DNA of 59,656 bases, filler included, from Ionaspis alba (taxonomy: Eukaryota), in assembly GCA_964255285.1 (NCBI GenBank). It is 5 parts of 5 records of this genome, joined end to end, with 100 filler letters (N's around TTAATTAATTAA, not from the genome) between each part and the next. Parts side by side here need not be neighbours in the genome. Positions count along the whole stretch, not along the records: positions 23,920 to 35,771 come from CAXUUL010000536.1; 4 more parts are not named here. One strand, 5' to 3'. Positions within the stretch are counted from its first letter, which is position 1; each line of letters begins with the position of its first letter. Shown in pieces: positions 267 to 47,816 of this stretch. The position numbers and the translations under genes were made by a program. The notes beneath the pieces are model-generated. The model was given only the letters and a program-made list of their open reading frames with translations, searched no databases and was not told the DNA's origin.

Positions 267-1434
267 ATGCGAGATCCAAAACATGGAAGACTGAATGACG
301 TCGAAGCCAAACAGAATCTAGGTGGTTCGGCAGCCATCCCGCGAAGTTCCACCTGGCGGCCCTCTATGACCTTAGATGGTTATCCTTCCTTCGCCGAGTT
401 TATTGCTCGAGACAGTGACGCTGCTATATATCGCAGATATGGACATCTAAGTGCAAGAAATCTGCTGTATATGCAAAGTGAACTTTATGAATTAGAGTTA
501 GAGCTGCAACAATTGGATACAGAGGATGCAAATAAAGTTGACAATGACGACGCGCAAAAGACAGCCCGGGATTGGAGATACTACTCCGACGAGGCGAACG
601 AAAGATCACGCAAACATAGAGTGTTGCAGAATAAAATCCGAATCAAGATTAAAGAGTACCGTATGTATCTCAATGACGTGGTCCGGACAAAGACAAGGTG
701 TCACTAACACCTGGGTGATAGATGAAGCAATGATGCTTGAAAGTCAGATTTATACACTCAGTCCACCAGGTCCTAGAACGTTGAAGACATTTAAGAGATG
801 GTTTTTATCTGCAGCGCCAATTCCTGTGCTCTGGGGCCGCGATGCGGCTTTATTTGACAATGAACAAGATCTCGTGACACTTGCCTCAGTTGATGCGGAC
901 CGTCTCAACATCTTTTTGAAAGCCTACTTTGGATGGTTCTTCAAGGTGAGTAGAGATTCAGAGAAGGCTTCACAAGATATCTACGTCGAGCGAGGAACTG
1001 ATTCGTCCTTAGGAAAAAGCGCCCAATAATGCTCCCCCTGACACCCATAGTAGTGACCTATTTTACTACCCCGAAAGACGAATTCGTCGTGCTGGGGCTA
1101 TAATATCAATCTTCTTCAGCGCAATCTTGCTCATCGGTGCCATTACCTGTCTTCTGTTGACTTCAAATCGCAGTATGAGTCTACGAGTAGGGATGATAGT
1201 ACTCTTCACGTGCTTGTTTGCCCTAGTGGTTGGACTACTTACAAATGCACGAAGAGCTGAGATATTCGGTTCAACAGCAGCGTGAGTACTTCATTCAAAG
1301 AGACCAAGCTCCATGAATGCTTTCTGAATTGAAAGCAACTTGACCGAAGAACCGCTAACAATTATTCGTGTTCTAGATATGCGGCTGTCCTCGTTGTTTT
1401 TGTAAGCAACAACATAGGAGGTAATACCTTGTGA
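267..1434 (+). CDS. DUF6594-like membrane protein, 4 exons (267-660, 722-945, 1013-1281, 1377-1434)
   Basis: N-terminal GYPSFAEFIARD...IYRRYGHLSARNLLYMQSELYELE motif and a C-terminal hydrophobic region ending AEIFGSTAAYAAVLVVFVS, both typical of fungal DUF6594 proteins. Three GT-AG introns with CTRAY-type branch points keep the frame. Confidence 0.8.
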
Positions 1435-2000
1435 TCAAGAGTCCCTTAGAGATGAAGTTGTCATCCGACATCAAGTACTCTTGTAAGTGCTGCAATCATT
1501 CTCAGCGATTGAGATCGCTATAGCCCCTTTTCAACGGAGGCTAAAAAAACGTTCGAGACTGTAATAGGGTCCAAGGACAGCTGTTCAGAAGAGGCACGGG
1601 TGTCACTGTAAATGAGCCATGCATTCGTGCTGTGGAAGTTGGCCGACTGATTCGTGTCGGCGTGAAAGGCTGGAAGACATGAAGCGGGCATTTCGGGAAG
1701 ATAGGCCAGGACAGGAGGCCATTCACGAGTGGGCTCATTGTGTTTGGGGTTCCACATAAGAATGCAAACACCACCATGATGACAAAAGGATTTTGAGCCG
1801 AGATTACAGCTTGGGCCTTAGTATCATGTTTAGCATGGAGTAAAGGCAATTTTGCATGGATTAGCTAGACTATGCGCTTAATGCTCTATGCTGAGTTGAG
1901 CTTTACAATGGCAAAAACGTGAAGGCAGTAGGGAATTGTTTCGAACCCACACTCTCGGCTACCATGTTGAAGTAGCAGGATGGTGGTGACAGGGGCCAAA

Positions 2001-11866: not shown

Positions 11867-11966
11867 NNNNNNNNNNNNNNNNNNNNNNNNNNNNNNNNNN
11901 NNNNNNNNNNTTAATTAATTAANNNNNNNNNNNNNNNNNNNNNNNNNNNNNNNNNNNNNNNNNNNN
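11867..11966. other. Artificial scaffold-joining spacer (N44-TTAATTAATTAA-N44)
   Basis: Identical spacer occurs four times. The palindrome has stops in all six frames. Confidence 0.95.
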
Positions 11967-23819: not shown

Positions 23820-23919
23820 NNNNNNNNNNNNNNNNNNNNNNNNNNNNNNNNNNNNNNNNNNNNTTAATTAATTAANNNNNNNNNNNNNNNNNNNNNNNNN
23901 NNNNNNNNNNNNNNNNNNN
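23820..23919. other. Artificial scaffold-joining spacer
   Basis: N run with central TTAATTAATTAA at 23864-23875. Confidence 0.95.
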
Positions 23920-24348
23920 AACTAAATGTGGTAATGACTGTTGAAAGCCGCCTCCAGCTGTAATGCTAATACATCCATGCATATTGAAGAATAAGTTTCT
24001 ACTTCCCCTCGGTCTCCTCCTTCCATCGTCCATCTACCTGCGCCAAGAAATAATTGTAACACCAGTCTCATTCCATCAAATGTATCCCCCAGAGCACAAA
24101 GATCGCACGAGCAGGCTAGCAACTAAAAAACTCCGACACTCCGAAGACTTTTATGAATTACCACAGAGGATGCTGCGGTTCATCTCAAGCACTGAAGACC
24201 AAGGCAGAGGTTTAGAATCCGCAAGCTTGACGGTCAGCTTCCGCGAAGGACACCAACATGTTCCCAAGGTCCAAATCACTCCAGTCATTGGGATACAGTT
24301 CCCCGAACGCTGCTGAGTATCGTAAGCGGTTTGCTGGCTGCTGACTGT

Positions 24349-24847
24349 CTATGGATAGCCATTGTTGCCGCTCGCCGATCCACCGCCATTGCTACCATTA
24401 GGAGCACTAGTTCCATTGGCATTGTTGGTTGGTGGCGGAAGCTGAAGGGGATATCTAGCTCCGCTGCCTTGCGTAGGTTCCCAGATATTGCGAGCGTCGT
24501 TTTTGGTAATACCGTCACAGGCACGATCGTATTCTTCCCTATCTGCAGTGCCTGGTTGAGCATCTTTACGTCGTTGCCAATATGCCACTTTCCAAGCCTC
24601 TTTACTCTGTATCTCGCTCCAGATCCAAGCACTCCGCCGAGGGTCGAGGTATTGATCTCTCCTCAGCGTTCTCTTTCCATAAGGAACACCAAAAAAAAGA
24701 ATCTGCACGATCGACGCCAAGGATATGATTGATCATATAGCCAATAAGCTCGTGATTATCTTGCCCATTCAGGTGCGACACTATGATCTTAGTCTAGGCA
24801 CCCTCTAGGACCCCGAGGTGAGAATTCCACCCGATTCCTAAAGCCAT
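24349..24847 (-). pseudogene. Possible disrupted small gene (in-frame TAG plus frameshift at a T8 run)
   Basis: ACAATCATGG start context and upstream TATATAAAA (about 25096-25104). Protein-like reading across a TAG at 24794-24796 and a frame change near 24691-24698 into the 24349-24720 ORF. No recognised family. Confidence 0.3.
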
Positions 24848-26315
24848 GATTGTGCCGCTTGATGGAAGGTAGTGAGAGAGCTTGGAGATGCTACACTCGA
24901 AACTTCGGAGCTATACTAGGCTAGGAATATTGTGCCTCGAAGGAGATGGGGATAGGCGGTGGAGAAGAGATGAGGGTATTTGGAAAGAACTGGTATGAAT
25001 CTATGACACTGAATATTTCCGGTGGACTTTTACTTCTTCGATGTTGGTGTATGTAATGAGGAGACAATAAGCAGTCAGGAAGGATCGAGAGAACTTTTAT
25101 ATAGAGTCTAGGAGATATCGGATGGAGAACAACAGGAATGAATCAATGTTCATGCATGATTGTCTTCAGGGTCACAGTGAAGCTCACGCTTCATGGTGAC
25201 GAGATAACAGTTTGGACCAAGTTCAATCAACCAAAGAAGCATTCATCATTGCCTGCTTCATCCAGTCCAAAGAAAGCAGATCATGAATCGTGAGCATGAG
25301 CACACATGTACAATGTGAACAAGATGCCAGGACAGCACTGATCTGTGTTATAGTTAAGCAGTCAACCCGAATAGACTACTAGAGTGTCATTCAGCACATT
25401 GTGTTCTCGCAGCATTTGCTTGAACCAAAAGAGCCGGAAGGAGTCTCCACGATTGACACTCGCATAGACTAGACAGCGTACATCAGGCATATCAAGGCTA
25501 TTTTGTGTGTAGAGCTCACTCTGCTGGGTGCTTTGCAGCTCATAGCCACTAGTCAAAGTCGACACTAGACGCGCAGATCGCTCCGCAAGAGATGCCTGGG
25601 CTTCATCGGTATGTGAAAGCAGTCGCAGATCGCTGAACATAGTGTCAAGGTGAAGCTGGAAACAACTCGACAAGATGCTGAATGGTATGGTCTTGGCGCT
25701 GAGTGGCCCCAGGAACTGGCTGACAAAACCGGTAGGAATAAAAAGGAAGACGGCAGCGCTATCTCAATGATTATAGCGGTAACTCACAGGGCAAACTCAC
25801 ACAGGAGGCGCAACAACCAATGTACTCATCAAGTGCTAAGAGAAATGATATGTCTAGCTATTGGGGGGCGAGTGCGCCAACGAAGCTCGCTTATATTCTG
25901 CTATTCAGTGTCATCCAGAATAGGTAACTCCAAAATTAAGTTCCGGCCTCCGGTATTTTTCTCAATTCAGTCATTCAGCATATGCAGATTGTCAATCACG
26001 AATCCATCCACATCAAGTGTTGTCCGAGTACCATTTAAGTCTTCATTTCGCTCATAAATGTTGCTTCACCAGCTCGACCAGTCTAGATATTCGTTGCGTC
26101 TCCAGAGTAGTAGAATCAAGAGGCTGCACACTCACAACGATGTGATTTATACTTGGCCTTAGCAATTCACACAGCATCTCTCTCCAGAGCAAGACCTATC
26201 GCAAAAAAATCAATTTTTATCCATTTTAATTTGACTGTCGGATCTATCTCGGGCTCCCCCTACGCAGAGGAAGAAAAGTAGGAGATCATCCATTCCCCTA
26301 ATAAACTTCTGTACC

Positions 26316-27749
26316 ATGGCGGGAAGCATAGAAAATCAATCCTCGTCCGAGGGTCAAACTTGGAGAGAGACTCGAGTTCTTCCCGTCAACTTAAAAGAAG
26401 TTGGAAATTTCCACTTTGATGAACCTAAGCATGGTTTCCTGGGAGACTGGAGTTTTGAACTCAATAGTGCCAGTCCCCACGCTCCTCATCTCTGCAAGGC
26501 AGCCCAACATCTACGAGAAGCCGATGTTCCTGTGGCTTTCCCTACAGAGACAGTTTACGGTCTCGGAGCTGACGCCACTCGCAGTTCGGCAGTTCGTGGA
26601 ATCTATACAGCAAAGCAACGACCCGCGGATAACCCCTTGATCGTCCACATCAGTTCGCTATCCCAGCTTCGAGGTCTCCTCTCACCCCGTAAGCAGAATA
26701 GTACTTTAGACGCTATCGGCAACGATAGCAGGGGATTTCCAAAAGATCCAATACCAGCGATATATCGACCCTTGATCCAGCGCTTCTGGCCGGGCCCCCT
26801 GACCATACTCCTGCCAAACCCAAAGGATTCAATCCTAGCCCCAGAAGTCACAGCCGGTCTCCCTACATTCGGAGCCCGGATGCCATCCTCTAACCTCGCT
26901 CTAGCCCTGATCAAGCTCGCCGGCGTCCCTCTCGCAGCGCCCTCTGCCAACGCCTCTACCAAGCCATCTCCGACCACAGCTCAGCATGTCAAGCATGATC
27001 TGGATGGGCGCATTGAGATCATCCTTGATGGAGGCCCCTGTGACGTTGGCGTTGAAAGCACAGTGGTGGACGGACTGTCAGATCCGCCTATGATCCTTCG
27101 GCCGGGTGGAGTGTCGATCGAGCTGTTGAGAGAGTGCGAGGGTTGGAAGGATGTGGCCGTGGGTTACAAGGACAGTTCCGAGAAGGGGAAGACGCCGAAG
27201 GCACCAGGTATGAAATACAAGCACTACTCACCCAGCGCAAAGGTCGTCCTGATAGAAGCCGGTGTTGGAGGCGGACAATTTGAGTCAAGTATCCTTACTC
27301 CATACCTCGACGATGGCGCGAAAAGTATCGGTATCGTTCGCACCAAGCGCTGGAAACCCCTTTCTCAAGGCTATCATAATCAAAATGGTAGGATCAATGG
27401 CCTTTTGAAAGGCATGTCGAATGGCACCATACAAGCACAAGACGAGGACCTGAAACAGACAAATGGAAGCCATCCACGAGGACCTACTACGTCTCTTCCG
27501 CCAAATACTGGGCACCCCATTCCGGCGGCCATAAAGCTTGCAATAAATCTACCCGCCACTGTGTGGGACTTAGCTTTGGGTGCGTCAACTGCAGATATAG
27601 CTCGAGGGCTCTTTTCGGCACTGCGAGAACTGGACCAGAAAAATGTAGATATAATCTTCGTCGAAGGGATCGATGACGCTGAGGGCGATGCCGCAGCGGC
27701 GGTCATGAATCGGCTAAGAAAGGCGGCGGAGGTAGAGGTGAAGTCATGA
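26316..27749 (+). CDS. SUA5: Threonylcarbamoyl-AMP synthase Sua5 (t6A biosynthesis)
   Basis: YrdC-domain motifs VAFPTETVYGLGADA, AKQRPADNPLIVH, FWPGPLT, AAPSANAS and GVESTVVD, linker APGMKYKHYSP, and Sua5 C-terminal domain AVMNRLRKAA. Confidence 0.96.
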   Translation: MAGSIENQSSSEGQTWRETRVLPVNLKEVGNFHFDEPKHGFLGDWSFELNSASPHAPHLCKAAQHLREADVPVAFPTETVYGLGADATRSSAVRGIYTAKQRPADNPLIVHISSLSQLRGLLSPRKQNSTLDAIGNDSRGFPKDPIPAIYRPLIQRFWPGPLTILLPNPKDSILAPEVTAGLPTFGARMPSSNLALALIKLAGVPLAAPSANASTKPSPTTAQHVKHDLDGRIEIILDGGPCDVGVESTVVDGLSDPPMILRPGGVSIELLRECEGWKDVAVGYKDSSEKGKTPKAPGMKYKHYSPSAKVVLIEAGVGGGQFESSILTPYLDDGAKSIGIVRTKRWKPLSQGYHNQNGRINGLLKGMSNGTIQAQDEDLKQTNGSHPRGPTTSLPPNTGHPIPAAIKLAINLPATVWDLALGASTADIARGLFSALRELDQKNVDIIFVEGIDDAEGDAAAAVMNRLRKAAEVEVKS

Positions 27750-28022
27750 TGGCCATGGTGTTTCGAGGAAATGTCGAAAGGGAAAGATTTATTCATCAGG
27801 AGCGACCGCCAGGTCGAAACGTCTAATAATCATCTGCTTTATACAAACACATCTTTAAGGCCGGCACCTAATAGAAATAGATGAGTAAGCAATACCACTG
27901 TGGCAGAATATTTATACATGATTTCGTGCTCATTTTCGGGTTCATCACCCCCCATCTTCATCCTTCTATTGGTTCTTGCCGCTCAGCTACTCATACATCA
28001 CCTCCATCGACCCCGCTTCTCC

Positions 28023-30684
28023 TTATTTATCAAACCACCCATCCTCCTTAATCCTCAACAAGAAACTTGCCCCCACCGCTCCGAACAGCCCCAAACAAAG
28101 TACAGTCGGCCCCAACCAATCATGGTACCTGACCGCCCTCCTCTTTCTGATCATTTTAACCCTCCACATATAAAGTCCCATACTGTACAATAACGCAGCA
28201 CACGCCACAATCGTGAAACCCCACGCCGCATACAGGGAGACGTTGTCGCCAAAATTGAGCAGCGCAGCAGCAATACTCCCAAGAATGATGGAGAACTCGA
28301 GCCAGGAGAGGAAGGTGCGCTCGGCCGCAAAGTAGACTTTGGGCTCGACACGGACGGGGACGTGAATGCCTAGAATTATGTGTTAGCATGGCTGTTGACA
28401 CAAAAGGGATCTTGAGGGAGAGAAGATAAAAGCTTACGTTTCCCCTTAGGCGCCTTGAAACGCTTGGCCTCAACATGGCCACTCATAGGATCCATAGCTC
28501 CAGGTCCAGGCATGGGAGTAGGTTTCGGAGTGGGGATGACCGCTTTGACGCCCTTCAGGATATAGTCGCCTACCAGGGCGACATGGTGCTTGAGGACCTT
28601 GCCACGATAATGCCAGCCGCCAACACGGCGCGCCTCCTCCATAGCGTCTGCTTCGTCCTCCTCTTCCGAGTCGTAGATGGGATAATCGTCTGGATTATCG
28701 AGGATTTGGGCACCGATGCGCTCTTCGAGGTCGAGCTCGTTAGAGGTGTGTTGGGGAAAGTCGGTAGAACGATCGCGGTCGTGCTGTTCGAGGGCGTCAC
28801 GGGCTTCGCGGAGGCGGAGAAGACCTTCGTCCGTGTCGTCGTGCTCGTCACCGTGCAGAGTTGGACTGTGAGCGGACTCCGAGACTTCGTCATCTTCGTC
28901 TTCAGAGTCGTCATCGAGATTATCGTCGCTGGTGGTGTAGCTGGCGGATTGGCCGGGGCGCTCGATGCCGAAGCGGTGGGTGATGGGTTTGCGGATATCG
29001 ATGCCCATTTGAGGCATCCAGAATGGGAGGAGGTGAATACGTGTCGGAAACAGGGTTGCAGTGCCGTGGATGAACTTGCTGAACTTGGGCACGGCTTCGA
29101 CAAGATGACTGCTGATTAGCTCTCGTACCCATTCTGGTGGATCTTGGCCTGCCTGGGTTTGAAGCTTCACTTCGAGCACAGCATAGGGAAAGCGCTCAAC
29201 GTCTTCTGGTGAGAGTTGCGAAAACGGATAGTCGATGCCGATATCCATTCGCCGCCAATTCTTGCCAGCGCGGGTTTTGCCGTCAAGATTGTCCTCTCTG
29301 ATCATGGTCAATTCCGTGTCCAGCGATATGCGAACTCTAGCATCTCCGGGTAATTGGAAAGCTGTCCGATTGTAGAAAGATCTTGTCACTGGCACAAGTT
29401 TTCTCGTAATGACTCGAAATTGGATTTCGCGTGCCAGTTGTTCTAGATCTGCGATCTCCTTCTCGCCCTTCTTGCCTTCCTTCCTCATCTTCTCAAAAAC
29501 GCTTTCTACAGTCATTTTGCCAGACAGGAAGGAATTGACATTTTTCTCCTTGAGCGAAAATCGAGCTTTGACGGACTTCTCTCCTGTCCAATCCTCTCGG
29601 TGTGTTTTCCTCTCCACAAAAATTGTCTCTGTATCCATGCCTCCGTACCATCGTAGTCGAATAGCTTCCGCGCCTTCAGTCTTCTTGAGCCGTCCAGTGT
29701 ACAACTCCCACGTGTCTGTGTTGTCGTAATATATTGAGGAAATTGCAGAATCTTTTGTTTCAAACTCCTTGCTGGCATTAAACACTAATACAGGAAGATG
29801 CTATGAATTATCAGCACTGAATTAGTCAAGATAGATGGGTACTATACCTTCAAAATTATAAGCTTTAATTCGGTGATGTTATCCGGGTGCACCCAATACT
29901 TGGTGGTCTGGCGCACAAAGTTTTGTTGCCCTCCTCCGGCAGCACTGTCTCCTTTGATTGGATTGCCTCTTGTCCGCACAAGATCATACAGCTTCGAAAG
30001 TTTGACAACAAAGGCATCATAGTTGTCTTTGAAGAAGGGCTTGGCCTTCAGCCGTGTTGCAAACACAGGTTTCAAATGCCACGAAGTTTGTTTCTGTGAC
30101 TCTATAAGCCTCGCTCAGAAGTATGAATCGGGGTATCGTGGCTCACGTCGTGTTTCTTAACGATTTTCTGGAATCCAGTATAATTCAATTGGGTAAACTT
30201 CGCAAGATCATGCACATCGGCAATGATATCACTTAAGTCTTCCTCCAGAAGCAAGAAATCTTCCTCCGAAGGCTCGGGAGTCTGTAGTCCACGAGCACGT
30301 CCATTTTGTCCCGGTCTGTCCTGCCCTTCGGCATCCAGCCGTGCAATAACATCGTTGACTTCCCTCTCGCTCGCCTTAATCCTCCTGACAATCTCTCCAG
30401 ATTTCACTCGCTGAAAGGTAAAGACCTTGTCGAGTTCCGCCTCGAGCTGGGCCACGAAAGACTTCTCGTCATCCTCGTTCCACGCTTGTCTTTTTGGATG
30501 TGGGTTCTGAGGGGAAGGTTGTATTTCGTAGGGTTTCTTGAGGGCGCTTTTCAAGTCGTCGTAGGCAATGTAGTAGTAGTAGTAATCTTTGATCAGGGAT
30601 GTTCGTAGTTGCTGGCCGACTGCAAGCAAATTAGCTAAACGAACATCGCCAGGATCGTTGGGTGGGGGGATCTCGACACTTCAT
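28023..30684 (-). CDS. VTC4: Vacuolar polyphosphate polymerase Vtc4, exons 30684-30678, 30619-30147, 30093-29848, 29800-28438, 28369-28023
   Basis: SPX domain (MKFGQQL...YIAYDDLK...[15 protein letters not shown]), VTC domain ([45 protein letters not shown]) and C-terminal [14 protein letters not shown] transmembrane region. Confidence 0.96.
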
Positions 30685-30885
30685 TGTAAGCCTCTGTCTC
30701 ACAGAGTTACTACGTGCTACCAATGAACAAAGACGTGTTATGTACGCGGCCCTTCATACTAGAACACACGGGAGGTCAAGCACTAGAGATATTGGGACAA
30801 GACGGCAAGCACGACTTCTTCGACCTCCCATGTAGGAGCTTTGTTTTCCAAGAAAGGCATTGGCCAATCACAGTTGTGCTCCTTT

Positions 30886-30891
30886 CACGTG
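30886..30891. promoter_or_regulatory. Pho4/NUC-1-type E-box CACGTG upstream of VTC4
   Basis: CACGTG about 200 nt upstream of the VTC4 ATG. VTC genes are established PHO-regulon members. A single 6-mer, so chance cannot be excluded. Confidence 0.5.
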
Positions 30892-31154
30892 TGCCAAGCA
30901 CAAAAGAGGACTTTCCGATCTTGTCAACATATCATCGCCCAGAAACCTACTCTATGCTCTTGCATCGAAATGTTGGCAAGTGATGTACTGTCTCGACTAT
31001 CGTTACTTCCAGACATTAAACTCCTGCTGCATAAGCTAAAACAGAAACACAATCGAGTACAAATGCATCACCAGTCTACTATCGTTACATGAACCTCCTG
31101 TCACCGCATTGACCATAACAATATAATCACTCACACTTTCGTCCTCAACGCACC

Positions 31155-34100
31155 TCAAACCACCCCAGTAACCCTCCTGATACTCCTCCTGGGTCCCTCT
31201 CCACTGACATTAACCTGGCCCTCTTGCTCCAACGCCCTCAAAGCCTCCGCAAACTCCACTCCCTCAACCTGCGCACTCCCCTGCTCTCCAAGCCTCCTAT
31301 AAACCTCCGCATACCTGGCCGCACCCCCTGACCTCGTCATATCGTCCAGCAAATCCAATATCGCCTTCTTCAAGTCCCCCTTTCGCCTTCTCTCGCTGGC
31401 ACTAGTACCTTCAGTCAACAGACTCATATCAATGAGCCCAGTCCTCGAGTCCGTCGCCGCTTGCTTGAGCGCGGACTTGATCAGGCGCACCGCTTCCGAA
31501 ACATCGTGAGTGGTCACTTCTTCGGACAGCCGCATCTTGGCGTGTGCTTCTGCAAGCCGGATCATGGACTCGAGCTGTCGTGTGGTGGCCGTGATGCGGC
31601 GCTCGGCGGCGCGGACGTCTTCGCCGAGTTTGCGCATGGCGACGTAGGAGCGGACGAGTTCTTCGGAGGCGGCTTGGGTGATGCGAGGTTGGCATTTGGT
31701 GCGGGCGTAGGAGATGTAGGAGGTTAGGAATTCGACAGGCTAGTAGAATGTTAGTAATATTTTTCATGTCTTCTCATGCAGTGAAGGAGTAGCTACCAGG
31801 ATCTCTTGTGTGCTGGCGTTCTCGGGAGTGTCTTCGAGGTACATGCCCACTAGATGGCGGGCTAGTCTTCGGTCGCTCTGCTCGTCAATCCGATCCAGGA
31901 CAAGGTAGACTAAGTCGAACCTCGAAAGGAGGGTAGGTGGAAGGTCGATATTTTGGGGTACCGGCAAATTGACGTTGTATTTACTGCCGATGGGATTCGC
32001 CGACGCGAGGATACTGGTTCGAGCATTCAGCGTGGTTATGATGCCGGCTTTGGCAATGGAGACTGTCTGCTGTTCCATGACTTCGTGGAGCACCGATCGA
32101 GTGGCGTCAGACATCTTGTCGAACTCGTCGATACAGCAGATACCACCATCTGAAAGGACCAATGCTCCTGACTCGAGGACCAATTGCCTCGTTTCCGGAT
32201 CTCGAGTCACATATGCGGTGAGACCGACAGCAGACGATCCTTTCCCGCTAGTATAAACGCCTCGTGGGGCAATCTTGTGGACGTACATCAGGAGCTGGGA
32301 CTTCGAAGTCGAAGGATCGCCGCAAAGGAGGACGTTGATATCGCCACGGTACTTGGGACTGCCGCCCTTCTCAAAGGACTTGTTCGTCCCGCCGAAGAGC
32401 TGGAGCAGGATTCCTTTCTTGACATCGTCCATTTCGTAGACACTCGGAGCTAGTGATCTGGACAAGAGCTCGTAGACGTCGGGTCTGGCTGCAACCGCCT
32501 TGATCTTCTCCTCTTCCTCTTCACTTACTTTTCGAGCCTGCTCGACGTCACCGGCGATCTGCTCAGAAAGTTCTTGTTCGACAGTGGAAACATCGATACC
32601 TAATCTCCTCTTATCCACCTTCTGGATATGTAAAACATCGACATACGTTTTGAACAAGCTCTTGATGGTACGTTGTCGGGGATTGACGCGAACAGGATTA
32701 CTACGGAAGATACCCGTTACCTCGATACGATCACCTGCTTTGCAGACGTCAACAAGCTCTTCGTAGGCACAAAGCGAAACCGAGTGTGGCGTCTGTCCGT
32801 CAGGAACACTGTCTGGTGTTTCTTGAAGCTTGATCACTTGCTTGTCTGTAAATTGGCAGCGGTTGTGCACGATCTGCATGGAGTTTGGGGATCGACAGAT
32901 CCGCCGGGGGCACATCGTTGGTTCGGCGATCTTGCCTCTATCCAAGGATACGTCGACTGCATGACCACACACTTGACATTTGAAGAAAGCTACCATCACG
33001 GTCAGGATGAGACAACAACAGACCAGGTACTCAAACTTACCGGTCTTCATGTCCGGGATGACTGGTGTTGTACGGATCACGAGCCCCTTGATACTGATCA
33101 TCTTGTCCATATCTGATTATTCCGTCAACCATCCGTGCCGATTATGCCAATGCTAGGAAGCTTACCATTTGGGTTCAAGTCTCTCATGTTGATTGTACTA
33201 TCAAGGCCAAACGGTTTGACTTTGTAGACCCTTGTTTCAACCTCTCGCACCAGATCTGGAACGTCGTCTTCATGGGCCACTCCGTCACGGTGCCCGTTGG
33301 CTTCCGAACTCGGCATTGGCGGCATTGAGCTGTCCTGTCTAGCACGAGACCGATTTGTATGAATCTGCCTTCGCTCTGTTCTCAACCTGTTCATCTCTTC
33401 TTTGGCTTGATCGACCATGAGATCTTTGATTGACTGATCCATGATAGGTATAATTTCATGTGGATATGCCTGAAGCTGATGCCACAATTTCACAGTCGAA
33501 GGATAAGCTTTGAGGTTGCGGGCGTCTAGATTGAGGCCAGTCACTCCGAGGTGGAGCATGTCCTTTAGCATCATAATGTATTCCTTCTCGTTGCCTCCGC
33601 TGCTAGGGTCTGATGTTTCCTCTTCCGTAGCCCCATCTGCCCACATACGATACTTCTTCTGGTACCCCAGCAGGAAGTCCTTGAATATCAAGATCGTGTC
33701 CTGAAGAGATATGTTTGTACCCCAGATTATTCTCGTTGATTGGCCGCCCATTGCATCGGCTTCAGAAGTGTTGGGATCTACATTGGAAAACGTAGCTGCA
33801 TCTGAATTGGGATTGCCGTCTCCGACAGGTATACCATTCTCATCGACAAATATACGGCGTCGTCGACCTGGTGTAGAACCGAATACGTCCGAGTGAATGT
33901 CGCTTCGACGGGAGTTATTCAGTCCTGACGCGCCGGCTACAGATGATCTTGCCTCCCGGACAAAAAGACCACTGCTGCTGCTTGGAATATCAGATGGACG
34001 ATGAGCATTGCCATTGAGGGCGCGTGTGGGGCTAGAGCTTGACACATATCGTATTGGCGATGACTCTATAAATTGTCAGGCTAGAATCAATCGCTGAAGT

Positions 34101-34454
34101 GATTTCAATACCATTCGGAGGATTCGCTCGTCCTCTGGGAGTCATCTCACTATCTGCAACACTGGAACCTTGTCGCAATGGAGAGCTGATGTCCATCCTC
34201 TCGTTCCCATTCGTAGCAGTTACACCATTAACAGGAGAAGAGCGAAAGAAGAGCGGGGAACTAGAAGCGACATCCTGCCTAGGAGCTCGAGGTGTCGCGT
34301 GTGCCTCATCTTGTTGAAGTGGAGTGCTAGCACTGGAGACTTGATTTTGGGTGGAAGTTGCCAAGGGGCTGGTCGGAGCCTCTCGAGAGATTCTAGCAGA
34401 GCGAGGAGTTCCTGATACTGACTTTCGAGATCTGCGCGACGCTGGCGACGACAT
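31155..34454 (-). CDS. MCM4: DNA replication licensing factor Mcm4, exons 34454-34112, 34065-33166, 33112-33041, 32989-31797, 31739-31155
   Basis: S/T-P-rich N-terminus, Zn finger (CQVC...CPRRIC), [16 protein letters not shown], Walker [10 protein letters not shown], Walker [10 protein letters not shown], arginine finger LLSRFDL and [12 protein letters not shown]. Confidence 0.97.
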
Positions 34455-34529
34455 TGTTGTGTGAAAATTGATGGATTGTTGGATGGTGGTTGAGAGAACC
34501 GTCTTGAGGGGTGCGCCCAGATAAGAAAG

Positions 34530-34563
34530 ACGCGACGCGCCAAAGGAAAACCACTTTACGCGT
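34530..34563. promoter_or_regulatory. MCB (MBF-binding) elements upstream of MCM4
   Basis: ACGCGACGCG at 34530-34539 and a perfect ACGCGT at 34558-34563, 75-110 nt upstream of the ATG of a DNA replication gene. Confidence 0.65.
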
Positions 34564-34807
34564 AAATAAGGCTGAGTGGAGTTCTTAACTATCAACCGCG
34601 GCGTTTTGTAATTCTTCTGTCTGCCACTTCTGGACAAGCAAAATAGCAAAGCATAGTTGATATAGGCCGTTCATACTGCTGATTGGATCCCCGTAGCGCT
34701 TGAGCTCGTGACAGATAATTAGTGAAGTTGAACAGATTCAACCATGCAATGTACTTAGACGAGGTTAGTACATAATAATACTAGATACATTTCAAAACCA
34801 TAATTAA

Positions 34808-34950
34808 TCCTCGATGGTCTAGTGGTCATGAGTAAGCCTTCCCATATCATATTGTCATAAAACAATAATCTAACGCGATTGTTCAGTTTCCGCTTGTCAT
34901 CGTTACAGTGCTAAGCGCGGGAGACCAGGGTTCGATTCCCTGTCGGGGAG
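34808..34950 (+). tRNA. tRNA-Asp(GTC) with two introns: spliceosomal-type 34832-34886 and canonical tRNA intron 34900-34915 (exons 34808-34831, 34887-34899, 34916-34950)
   Basis: Joined exons give TCCTCGATGGTCTAGTGGTCATGATTTCCGCTTGTCACGCGGGAGACCAGGGTTCGATTCCCTGTCGGGGAG (72 nt). Acceptor TCCTCGA/TCGGGGA, anticodon stem TCCGC/GCGGG with GTC at 34896-34898, T-arm CAGGG-TTCGATT-CCCTG, G discriminator. A and B boxes intact. Confidence 0.92.
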
Positions 34951-34952
34951 AA

Positions 34953-34959
34953 TTTTTTT
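34953..34959 (+). terminator. RNA polymerase III terminator (T7)
   Basis: TTTTTTT two nt after the tRNA discriminator base. Confidence 0.85.
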
Positions 34960-35493
34960 GGACTCTTGGAGTGAGGCTTCTTTTTGTGCGTAATAGCCTA
35001 TAGGACCGTCTACAGCAGCAATGGAATTGATGATGTTGTTGGTTGGTTCAAAGTCCACGAAACTGTCGTAGAAATGCGCAGAATGCGCGGTAATTACTTG
35101 TGTCGATCGAATTCGGCCATTCAAAGCGCGTGCTCGCCGTATTGTACCTTCCCAGGATCAAGAGCTCGTTGTTGAACCTGAAAAATCGAAAATCGAAAAT
35201 CAAAAGAAGATACTTGGATGGAGATGTTGGATCACGGTCCAACAAGAGCAGGACATCAGACCAGGTCGAGATTGGTGCTAATGCCAAGACTTTATGATTA
35301 ACTGTGAACAATTATGAAATCCGCTCATATATCTTCAAGTCTTCTCAAAATTCATGATATTTTCACAATGCTGTATATGAAAGGTCAAGATGTCATATAT
35401 TGCTCAATTGAGAGACCAACCCGCCGATAGGAGGTATATTTGTTCCTTCGTTCTCTATATATTAGAGATATCTTTTCTCGTGAATAGTCTTAG

Positions 35494-35771
35494 TCATAGC
35501 TTCTCTGTGCTATTCACGAATACATGCTCGAGACCATCACCTCCATCTCTAGTCTGCTCATCCCTGTTGCTAGCGGACGAGTCGCTCTCTGTTTCCCAGT
35601 CCGACCGGGACCTTCCCTCATCACTTGTGGTGTCTCCTCTGTCGACCCCATCTGATGAAGTAGAGCTTGCATTCTCACTGAACCCGCGATCGCTGGCGTC
35701 AGAATTCTGCGCTTCTAGGTCATGTTTTTTCGATAAGTGATCCTGCAGCCACGCATGGTGATCGTTCGATA
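35494..35771 (-). CDS. Possible 3' end of a gene truncated at the scaffold edge (acidic, Ser-rich tail)
   Basis: Stop-free minus frame from the scaffold end: SNDHHAWLQDHLSKKHDLE...DWETESDSS...VNSTEKL*. Confidence 0.45.
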
Positions 35772-35871
35772 NNNNNNNNNNNNNNNNNNNNNNNNNNNNN
35801 NNNNNNNNNNNNNNNTTAATTAATTAANNNNNNNNNNNNNNNNNNNNNNNNNNNNNNNNNNNNNNNNNNNN
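35772..35871. other. Artificial scaffold-joining spacer
   Basis: N run with central TTAATTAATTAA at 35816-35827. Confidence 0.95.
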
Positions 35872-35908: not shown

Positions 35909-37020
35909 CTAAAGCATCAAAGCCAATAACGCAGCTCCACCAGCAACCAACCCCCCACCGACCTTCGCCGCACCACCAGTCTGAATCGGCGTCATCGAGC
36001 TCGTCGCCGTCGGCACCATCGCCCCACTCGTCCCCGTGGCCGACCCCGTCATCGTGGAGTTCCCACTAACCGTAGAATTCGACCCCAAACCCATCGCAAG
36101 CGTCGCATTCGCCACGGCCGGTTCCTCGACCTTCTCATAGGCCGCGCAAGTGGCTTCAGGGGAGAGAGGGCAGTTGTCAGCGATACACATCGCCTGGAGC
36201 TGGGGTCCTTGCTCTTTGACGACGGTAGTGGGGGGCGAGCATCTGTAGTCGAAGAGTTTGGTCAGGGCTGTGGCGACGGCGGTGATGTCGGATTTGGCGA
36301 CGCCGAAGGAGGCGGCGGAGAGGCCGACTTGGGTTATGAAGTAGCCCATTTGGTAGGGGTCGAGGGCCATGAATCTGTCCGGGGGGTATGGAGTCAGTAG
36401 ATGTGGGAGAAGTGGGTGGATGTGAGTCTGGGAGGAGAGAAGTACTTGTGCACTTGGTACTGGCTGGCTTCGCCACCGTATTTGGGGAAGTCGCTCGATT
36501 TGCCGACTTGGGTGCAGCCGAGCAGGACTCCGAAGTACTGGTACAAGTGCGTCAAGAGCGTGCTGCGATCCTGTTAGTTTTCCTGCCGCTTCATGGTTTC
36601 TCGAAAGAGCTCAATGGCCAGTACTGACTATTGATTCGAGCTCGTCCCGTTGGCTGGCATATTCATCATCAACGGCGCTGCTCCACCATCATCCAAGAAG
36701 TTGACCGCGACACCGTGCTTGCCGCCGTCGTTCGTGCTCGCCAGTCCGCCGTTGAAGTAGGGCAGGAGATTCACATCGGTGCCGTTGTACTGGCCTTTGG
36801 CCAAGATGCCGGGGACTGTGATGCCGACGTTGGGTTTGGTGTAGTTGCCGATGACGGCGGTGTTGACGAGGAGGGTCAGGAGCGTGTATTGGTTCTTGGC
36901 GGTGTTTTCTTTGAGGAGAGCGGTCGTGTAGTAGTCGCAGATGGGGGTGTCGGTGGGGCGCTGGGCGAGGGTTGTGGAGGTGAGGGCGGCCAGGGCGGCC
37001 AGGATGGTGGAGGTACGCAT
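35909..37020 (-). CDS. Secreted, probably GPI-anchored fungal protein, exons 37020-36629, 36562-36446, 36374-35909
   Basis: Signal peptide MRTSTILAALAALTSTTLA. Cys-containing core (ICDYYTTALL, FLDDGGAAPL, LTHLYQYFGVLLGC, VHKFMAL). S/T-rich stalk and hydrophobic C-terminus GGAAKVGGGLVAGGAALLALML. Two canonical introns. Confidence 0.85.
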
Positions 37021-38381
37021 ATTGGGTGTTTTGTTTGGGTGAATACGAATGGGGTATCACGGATATTTTTCGAAATGAAGCAGAAGCAGAATCAATAACA
37101 GCAGTGGAGAGTGTGTACTTTCGGAAGAAAAAAGCGACAAGAAGGAACGGACAGGATCCAAATCAGACAGATCCGGATCTCCTTTTCTTCTTATTTACCT
37201 CTTCATTCCCTCGGTCGTTCCCCTTCCCGCGGAATGTCCCATCACTATCCCATCTCCACCAAGCAATCTCATCATAGTCACATAGTGCCGCATAGTGCGC
37301 TTTTCCCACCCTTACACGCACGTCCCTGCACAAGCAAAGCACCCATGCAGTCATAACGGCCTGGTTCATACGGTTAGTGTCGATCGTAGTTGGTTTACTC
37401 CTGCAGCAGTCGAGCTTTGGCGCCATATCCCGATCCAGCCGAGCCATGAAATATACTAACTTTATCGAGAATGTCGTCTAGGCCTGAAACGAGCAAGTGC
37501 CGGATAGTTTGCTTGCCGAGATGGCCGGAAGAGGTTTAGATGGTGCGGAAAGTTGTGTCAACGGCGCTTGCTTTGCTTTGCGGTGGATGTCATTTGCTAG
37601 GACCTGGAAGCGGCTTCTTTCGGCAGGGTTCACGGCCGCGTGAAAACAGGGTTTGGGGAAAGCTTGTTGTTGGTGCGGTTGTGGAGTATTATTGTCTTGC
37701 TTGAGCTTGGGGAAATGAGGATTTGGGAAAGAAATCTCCTTTTATGGAGGCATTTGGAATGGTTCTGGAATGGGTCTTCTGTTTGTTCTGTTGCTCTACG
37801 AGTCGCTGAGTCTTTATGCCATTCGTCCGTAATTGAAGATGTGCTTCTTTTGATTGGCTGTCCTACTCTATGGATCAAGCATTTGGCAAAAAGTCGACTG
37901 GGGATGACTTTTGAAACATGCAGGTTTCTCGTTGTTGTCGGAACGCGCCATGCCCGTGATCGACTCTCATGGCAGAACTCAAGAACGGAGCAAGCATATT
38001 CCGAAAGCGTAATCAGGACATCAGATGATGAGAAAAGGATTCTAGTTTCGCCATGGAGGATCAGCTGGCAGTAATTAGTAGTAATTATGTATAGCTTTTG
38101 CTTAACCCGGCATTTCCATATCGCCTTTCCCCGTCTTCCCAGTCAAGCTATCCAGCTGGGTATCATCATCCTGAAGATGCAGGGGTTCAGCCACGTATCT
38201 TCGCCTAGTACTCCGCCGAGTGGACAATGCCCTTCTCGCCATCAATATGTCCATCAGATATGAAAAATCAAAGCAAAACTTTTGTGGAGAGTCTTCCATG
38301 CCCCTACTATCTGTTACACTTTTCCTCCCATGCTTTTGAGTGATATGTACTCATAATCGTGAAATTCATGCTCGGTATTCA

Positions 38382-47716: not shown

Positions 47717-47816
47717 NNNNNNNNNNNNNNNNNNNNNNNNNNNNNNNNNNNNNNNNNNNNTTAATTAATTAANNNNNNNNNNNNNNNNNNNNNNNNNNNN
47801 NNNNNNNNNNNNNNNN
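47717..47816. other. Artificial scaffold-joining spacer
   Basis: N run with central TTAATTAATTAA at 47761-47772. Confidence 0.95.

Follow-up and report, generated by a model that had tools for sequence, protein, structure and literature searches.

A tRNA-Asp(GTC) gene from a lichen-type fungus with a canonical 37/38 intron and a putative spliceosomal intron in the D-stem

Structure of the interrupted tRNA-Asp gene

The window analyzed here is a stretch of 59,656 nucleotides (nt) from the Ionaspis alba assembly GCA_964255285.1, in which an initial annotation had marked a transfer RNA (tRNA) gene for aspartate, tRNA-Asp, that is broken in its D-stem by an intron-like insert. Direct reading of the sequence located this tRNA-Asp(GTC) gene on the plus strand (34808-34950) and divided it into three exons and two introns. 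The shorter intron, which lies between tRNA positions 37 and 38, is an ordinary tRNA intron that the tRNA splicing endonuclease would be expected to remove. The longer one is a 55-nt insert between positions 24 and 25. We consider it probable that the locus is a functional nuclear tRNA-Asp(GUC) gene with two introns of different kinds, the longer of which is removed by the spliceosome.

Removal of nucleotides 34832-34886 in silico allowed ARAGORN to predict a tRNA-Asp(gtc) of 72 nt whose 37/38 intron comprises 16 nt, as the initial annotation had claimed; its coordinates for the insert and the branch site likewise turned out to be exact to the base. The D-stem, and with it the tRNA, is restored solely by the GT..AG boundaries, and the junction cannot slide. 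In the joined sequence U25, the first base of exon 2, pairs with G10 and closes the D-stem. Together with this pair, the gene displays G73, the GUC anticodon and C38, a set that we take to be the aspartate identity elements of yeast. The A and B boxes (34815-34825 and 34929-34939) were assigned from the consensus sequences of these promoter elements. They are about 100 nt apart in the interrupted gene, a spacing tolerated by RNA polymerase III (Pol III). No run of four or more T residues was detected in the 55-nt insert of the window copy.

Gene finders failed on the interrupted gene, which had also been anticipated. ARAGORN with default settings reported zero tRNAs across the window, and with the intron search switched on it made a wrong call at the intact locus, a 93-nt tRNA-Gly(ccc) with a 50-nt intron. 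Rfam searches at gathering thresholds found no tRNA in the window (0 hits). At E<=1 neither a tRNA nor an intron family was found in the window or in the two metagenome loci described below, and the sole match in the window was a chance-level hit to mir-458 elsewhere than the tRNA locus.

The signals at the ends of the insert are rare in their combination. Among the 116,738 55-mers on both strands of the window, only one starts with GTRAGY, ends with YAG and contains CTRAY 8-30 nt before its end, and this is the insert itself. A composition-based estimate for the same combination gave 1.3e-6. A chance origin of the insert signals is negligible. An introner or introner-like element, a transposon-like kind of intron, would be repeated in many almost identical copies among the introns of its genome; BLAST of the insert against the 59.6-kb window returned just matches of 8-14 nt with E values of at least 2, and no second copy.

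Furthermore, the resemblance to the mRNA introns of the window that had been noted from the outset was borne out in donor, branch motif, spacing and size by 12 introns backed by flanking open reading frames (ORFs). These introns measure 53-111 nt (median 64), CTAAC occurs in five of the 12, and the median distance from the branch to the 3′ end is 13 nt. GTAAGC is the donor of both ORF-supported introns on the scaffold of the tRNA gene; the MCM4 intron at 33113-33165, which has this donor, is supported by protein alignment as well. With a length of 55 nt, a GTAAGC donor, a CTAAC box, a branch distance of 13 nt and a CAG acceptor, the insert is within the range of the host introns.

An uninterrupted tRNA-Asp, which the initial annotation had suggested looking for, was found in another organism of the same study. 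In a contig of run X2, the last 15 letters of the exon 1 D-arm are joined directly to the sequence from 34887 onward, resulting in an uninterrupted gene with exactly the predicted 24/25 junction and a different 3′ flank. Its alignment to window positions 34887-34950 contains eight gap positions across the part spanning the 37/38 intron, whose length in this contig is apparently different.

That an assembly or scaffolding error joined unrelated sequence inside a tRNA gene has next to no probability. The window is indeed composed of five size-sorted scaffolds of 11,840-11,866 nt, stitched together by six-frame-stop linkers (N44-TTAATTAATTAA-N44) at 11867-11966, 23820-23919, 35772-35871 and 47717-47816, and genes across a linker are not neighbours. 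Moreover, the sole DNA run with the locus (X1), in which two contigs cover the insert at a summed depth of 116.3, is possibly the source of the window's own assembly and does not provide independent support. Against an artefact, the insert is located about 900 nt from the nearest end of its scaffold (23920-35771) and contains no N, and one of the two X1 contigs spanning it has a 1-nt variant within the insert, where an additional C follows 34844. In addition, two unrelated metagenome contigs, L001 and L002, which are independent of the window assembly, exhibit the same architecture and effectively refute this explanation. The X1 contigs over 34000-35700 represent two or three diverged versions, with some pieces differing by about 10% or more in the flanks, which suggests several haplotypes or strains in the X1 sample.

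Table 1. Positions of the elements of the interrupted tRNA-Asp gene and of its conserved flanks (positions count along the window).
Feature	Position	Strand	Remarks
Upstream patch, 33 nt	34708-34740	+	68-100 nt before the tRNA; kept in L001
tRNA-Asp exon 1 (24 nt)	34808-34831	+	contains the A box (34815-34825); 24/24 identical in L001
Spliceosomal-type intron (putative), 55 nt, tRNA positions 24/25	34832-34886	+	L001 and L002 have homologous inserts at this site
Donor GTAAGC	34832-34837	+	first bases of the 55-nt insert
Branch CTAAC	34870-34874	+	34873 is the branch A, with 13 nt to the 3′ end of the insert
Acceptor CAG	34884-34886	+	last bases of the 55-nt insert
tRNA-Asp exon 2 (positions 25-37, 13 nt)	34887-34899	+	5′ strand of the anticodon stem; anticodon GTC at 34896-34898
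Canonical 37/38 tRNA intron, 16 nt	34900-34915	+	ARAGORN; 4/4 central helix in the BHB-style register test
tRNA-Asp exon 3 (positions 38-73, 35 nt)	34916-34950	+	3′ strand of the anticodon stem, 4-nt variable region, T-arm, 3′ strand of the acceptor
B box GGTTCGATTCC	34929-34939	+	within the T-arm of exon 3
Discriminator G	34950	+	last base of exon 3
3′ flank kept with L002 copy A	34951-34990	+	36/47 alignment columns match
T7 run, Pol III terminator-like	34953-34959	+	2 nt past the discriminator

Homologous interrupted genes in metagenomes

Metagenomes were scanned with a pattern that specified the edges of both exons and left the 35-65 nt between them open, so that the ends of the insert were not imposed. 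Since about 26 exon positions were fixed in this way, the exon identity of the recovered loci is partly due to ascertainment. The scan revealed the two loci L001 and L002, and BLAST added a second copy in L002, giving a total of four copies in three genomes. The same pattern applied to prokaryote genome contigs and to viral contigs resulted in 0 loci each, as expected for such collections.

L001 harbors one copy with a 54-nt insert at 24/25 (GTAAGT...CTAAC...TAG) and a 17-nt intron at 37/38, and deletion of the insert turned it into a tRNA-Asp(gtc) in ARAGORN. The L002 copy matched by the pattern (L002B) has a 53-nt insert (GTGAGT...CTCAT...TAG), and the copy revealed by BLAST (L002A), 110 nt upstream of it, has one of 55 nt (GTAAGT...CTAAT...CAG). 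The 37/38 introns of L001 and the two L002 copies comprise 17, 17 and 21 nt, and these copies are followed by runs of 6, 8 and 5 T residues. Counting the window copy, a T-run of 5-8 is present 2-4 nt past the discriminator in 4/4 copies.

Donor and acceptor of the insert, GT[AG]AG[CT] and [CT]AG, are found at the same site in all four copies. The branch A is located 13 nt from the 3′ end in the window copy and 12 nt in L001. The aligned branch sites read CTAAC, CTAAC, CTAAT and CTCAT in the window, L001, L002A and L002B, respectively, with an invariant branch A. When all four copies are aligned, 17 of 55 positions of the insert do not vary, including G1, T2, A4 and G5 of the donor, TCT.A at the branch site and T.AG at the acceptor. 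In contrast, the interior of the insert, stripped of these signals, aligned no better than shuffled sequences between the window and L001 (p = 0.43); between L001 and L002A the alignment was better than shuffles (p = 0.005). The initial annotation had proposed to examine whether homologous inserts keep their splice signals while their interiors diverge, and GT, branch A and AG were in fact retained in every copy.

Comparison of the window copy with L001 displayed 71/72 identical exon positions, whereas the two introns matched in only 49/77 alignment columns (Fisher p = 1e-8). Restricted to the exon positions not fixed by the pattern, identity was 45/46 against the 49/77 of the introns (p = 4.6e-6), and exon 3 alone gave 34/35 (p = 6e-5). 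The lone exon change, A72 to G, maintains pairing with U1. Flanks of 40-45 nt are 62-64% identical (58/92 columns). For L002A, which was outside the reach of the pattern, 67/72 exon positions and 47/73 intron columns match the window copy (p = 3e-5). The claim that the gene does not look like a decaying pseudogene is supported by these values. Exon identity at 45/46 positions combined with an interior at shuffle level indicates that the interrupted gene stayed under selection as a tRNA and that its splice signals were likewise retained while the interior became saturated. The arrangement appears to be old, given that the same site and the same signals occur in other genomes despite saturated interiors.

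Both L002 copies have damaged exons. In L002A the anticodon is changed to GTT and positions in the D-arm and the T-loop are altered, while L002B has a mismatched acceptor and a destroyed B box; ARAGORN predicted 0 genes in either copy. The weakened branch motifs coincide with the decayed exons, and the exact CTAAC is found in both intact copies. The two L002 units (1303-1747, minus strand) constitute a tandem duplicate of the intron-bearing tRNA-Asp unit with about 260 nt per unit. Four of the five exon changes in L002A are G:C to A:T, three of these in a CpA/TpG context, a hint of repeat-induced point mutation after the duplication (3/5 changes in context).

Decay of this kind raises the question of whether the window gene itself is a dead tRNA-Asp copy, in which a piece of DNA sits in the D-stem and the exons are intact through recent inactivation or gene conversion from paralogues. 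The loss of a recognizable tRNA in L002A and L002B and the uninterrupted tRNA-Asp in a related sample would be consistent with such an origin. Likewise, a eukaryotic tRNA gene that contains a non-canonical insert is, according to PMC4090602, usually regarded as a pseudogene. However, the insert is common to lineages in which interiors and flanks are near shuffle level, yet 45 of the 46 unbiased exon positions are the same. Exons and signals held over a time that saturates the interior are a pattern that a gene dead since insertion cannot give. Gene conversion would have had to act on each of the three exons (24, 13 and 35 nt) on its own and yet leave the insert in place every time, and neutral decay leaves unexplained why a GTAAG-type donor, the branch A and YAG persist in 4/4 copies and CTAAC in the two intact ones. 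We therefore regard a dead copy as unlikely and retain the reading of a functional interrupted gene.

Sequence similarity between the copies includes short flanking stretches. The upstream patch is 85% identical to L001 567-535 over 33 nt; elsewhere the upstream regions cannot be aligned. The patch in L001 (535-567) sits between two GATTCACT direct repeats; L002 is devoid of the patch and has a GATTCACT direct repeat at the gap. The patch may be a promoter-proximal element. The 3′ flank of the window copy aligns with L002A (approx. 1560-1600, minus strand) and is better kept than the introns. The 3′ flank of L001 matches that of L002B instead, and this pairing suggests either that the ancestor had a tandem pair or that the trailer is a functional element. 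BLASTN and TBLASTX of the window against L001 and L002 detected no similarity beyond about 300 nt around the gene, and the copies may be either old paralogues or orthologues whose surroundings have been rearranged.

Proposed removal of the two introns

Judged by its donor, branch box, acceptor, host-range length and conserved signals, the 55-nt insert can be classified as a putative U2-type GT-AG intron. To our knowledge, no machinery but the spliceosome needs GTRAGY, a CTRAY box 12-13 nt upstream of the 3′ end and YAG together. The conservation of these three elements thus points to the spliceosome and is a stronger argument than the structural comparison with endonuclease substrates described below.

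In the pathway that we propose, Pol III would transcribe the gene from its internal A and B boxes to the T-run; intact boxes and a T-run directly after the gene make it the likely polymerase. The precursor would form the acceptor and T arms but not the D-stem, because the U2-type intron separates positions 24 and 25. The conserved signals suggest that the spliceosome would read GUAAGC, CUAAC 13 nt before the 3′ end and CAG, remove the insert as a lariat and join A24 to U25. Only after this step would the cloverleaf fold and the tRNA endonuclease cut the 16-nt intron at 37/38; we infer this order from the dependence of the endonuclease on the mature tRNA body. Sealing of the tRNA exons by the ligase would come last. 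On balance it appears likely that this lichen-type lineage has long possessed a Pol III-type tRNA-Asp with a true spliceosomal intron in the D-stem and an endonuclease-type intron, and that both systems act on it in a fixed order.

Alternatively, the insert could be a real intron that is cut by the tRNA endonuclease and ligase or by another nuclease, comparable to introns of Cyanidioschyzon merolae and nucleomorphs, and its GT-AG ends would be incidental. In support of this, some eukaryotic endonucleases excise introns from the D- and T-arms, as stated in PMC4090602. We compared both introns in a register test for the bulge-helix-bulge (BHB) motif. The 37/38 intron showed 4/4 central pairs in all four copies. 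In contrast, the insert reached at best 3/4 central pairs and no register was common to the four copies, so that no 4-bp central helix with flanking helices brackets its junctions in any copy. The test is crude, as it demands a strict register and does not allow relaxed helix-bulge-helix (hBH) motifs, and its outcome is weak negative evidence. The splice signals speak more clearly: there is no reason why GTRAGY, CTAAC at -12/-13 and YAG should persist in a BHB intron across saturated divergence, and their joint origin by chance has a probability of about 1e-6 per insert. Moreover, the endonuclease of fungi takes its measure from the mature body and makes contact with the D-arm (PMC4090602), and it is the D-arm that the insert disrupts. 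Excision by an endonuclease is highly improbable, which leaves the spliceosome as the favored machinery. A group I or group II self-splicing intron was rejected as a candidate, as 55 nt is too short and no Rfam intron family was found at E<=1.

Spliceosomal removal might also take place on a Pol II precursor, for instance a non-coding RNA (ncRNA) starting near the upstream patch, from which ribonucleases P and Z (RNase P and RNase Z) would free the tRNA. Such a precursor would be in line with an upstream patch and a 3′ flank that are kept with the gene though the wider neighbourhood is not, with the normal coupling of splicing to Pol II, and with runs of T4 and T5 in the inserts of L001 and L002A, respectively, that would trouble Pol III. 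On the other hand, the T-run past the discriminator in 4/4 copies and the intact A and B boxes in both intact copies are in favor of Pol III, and U6 demonstrates that Pol III transcripts can be spliced (PMC5855946). A Pol II origin of the precursor is quite unlikely, and we keep to a Pol III transcript as the substrate of the spliceosome.

Several points weigh against this interpretation. The comparison comprises three genomes and four copies, two of which are decayed. In the sequencing runs compared with the locus, which consist of contigs, no joint across the window's insert was seen, a result that bears neither way on expression. Two of the three additional copies were found by a pattern that fixed some 26 exon positions, a bias for which the value of 45/46 is corrected. 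An uninterrupted tRNA-Asp exists in another organism of the study, and the same in this genome could make the interrupted copy dispensable. Furthermore, the T4 and T5 runs in the L001 and L002A inserts could weaken Pol III read-through, and with no synteny beyond approx. 300 nt it may be that old paralogues, and not orthologues, are being compared. Finally, efficient splicing is normally coupled to Pol II.

Host genome and relation to known introns

The tRNA gene is neighboured by MCM4, which is transcribed away from it and starts about 140 nt upstream; a gene with a VTC domain is located further along the same scaffold. The best named match of MCM4 is a lecanoromycete protein (87%), with a dothideomycete next (85%). 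Most telling for taxonomy is a less conserved, tuberin-like protein, although it is encoded on another scaffold of the same assembly, the next one in the window: nearly all named matches listed belong to lichen-forming Lecanoromycetes (Ptychographa 64%, Lignoscripta, Xylographa and others). On the basis of these protein matches, the host is treated as a member of the Pezizomycotina, presumably a lecanoromycete of the lichen type. The MCM4 frame is broken by an in-frame stop at 31740-31763 (minus strand), which separates two ORFs of the same frame. A tblastn alignment runs straight across this break, and an intron finder proposes a 111-nt GTGGGC...TAG intron at the same place. Pfam returned nothing for four ORFs of L002 and four window ORFs at 35909-38142 on the next scaffold.

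Spliceosomal introns outside mRNA have a history in fungi. An mRNA-type intron was reportedly described in the U6 small nuclear RNA (snRNA) gene of fission yeast by Tani and Ohshima in 1989 and 1991, and Canzler et al. are said to have reported U6 introns of other fungi in 2016. Ectopic spliceosomal introns in the ribosomal DNA (rDNA) of lichen-forming ascomycetes were reportedly the subject of work by Bhattacharya et al. in 2000. PMC5855946 lists spliceosomal introns in the Pol III-transcribed U6, in U1, U2 and U5 genes and in ascomycete rDNA. According to PMC8527467, lichen fungi remove spliceosomal introns from Pol I-transcribed ribosomal RNA (rRNA), and yeast spliced one that was placed in its rDNA. 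Non-canonical tRNA introns of eukaryotes are listed in PMC4090602 only for nucleomorphs and C. merolae. Reviews treat spliceosomal introns, tRNA introns and XBP1/HAC1 introns as three unrelated classes and have tRNA introns removed only via the endonuclease-ligase pathway (PMC12530127, PMC10275265). A full-text literature search, which left most subscription journals outside its coverage and is not proof of novelty, retrieved no report of a spliceosomal intron in a tRNA; within that coverage it agrees with the initial annotation, which knew of no described case.

If our interpretation is true, the tRNA-Asp insert would represent the first case of a tRNA with a spliceosomal intron. A spliceosome-dependent tRNA would break the separation of the intron classes and add tRNA to the short list of RNAs not made by Pol II that are processed by the spliceosome. 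It may make an essential tRNA depend for its supply on the capacity of the spliceosome, comparable to the growth-slowing role proposed for the rDNA introns of lichens. It would also provide a natural substrate for studies of U1 and U2 recruitment to Pol III transcripts that have no cap, and a clear case in favor of reverse splicing as the origin of introns. Since tRNA scanners and Rfam miss interrupted genes of this type, fungal genomes that seemingly are short of an isoacceptor or have low tRNA counts may hide them.

Among the known systems, the fungal U6 introns come close to the tRNA-Asp insert. Both are short GT-AG introns with a branch site in a small structured Pol III ncRNA of an ascomycete, and in both cases removal would be needed for folding. 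Unlike U6, which is part of the spliceosome's active site and offers an obvious rationale for reverse splicing, the tRNA is without such a rationale. Moreover, tRNA-Asp has a second intron of the endonuclease type, so that a single precursor of 143 nt would be processed by two splicing systems that are unrelated to each other. The rDNA introns of lichen fungi belong to the same fungal group by protein matches and are likewise short spliceosomal introns in a structural RNA gene not transcribed by Pol II (PMC8527467). They differ in residing in Pol I-transcribed rRNA and in having support at the RNA level, whereas the tRNA case is known from DNA. The introns of U1, U2 and U5 (PMC5855946) and of the fungal U3 small nucleolar RNA (snoRNA; PMC5832005) are comparable as sporadic, lineage-specific GT-AG introns in fungal ncRNA. 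In contrast to tRNA-Asp, these RNAs are mostly transcribed by Pol II or have roles near the spliceosome or in the nucleolus, and none of them is a tRNA.

The tRNAs of C. merolae and of cryptophyte and chlorarachniophyte nucleomorphs resemble tRNA-Asp in that they can have two or more introns, some of which lie in the D-arm (PMC4090602, PMC3728597). However, their introns are BHB-dependent or very short (3-24 nt in Guillardia theta) and are thought to be cut by the endonuclease (PMC4090602). As described there, they are without GT-AG and branch signals, while the tRNA-Asp insert fails the BHB test and has conserved signals. Finally, among canonical 37/38 introns the 16-nt intron is an ordinary member, and the 55-nt insert differs from them in its position at 24/25, in its rejection by tRNA scanners and in its mRNA-intron signals. 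The tRNA-Asp insert is thus best placed with the ectopic spliceosomal introns of ncRNA genes, to which it would add a new class of host RNA and a dependence on two processing machineries.

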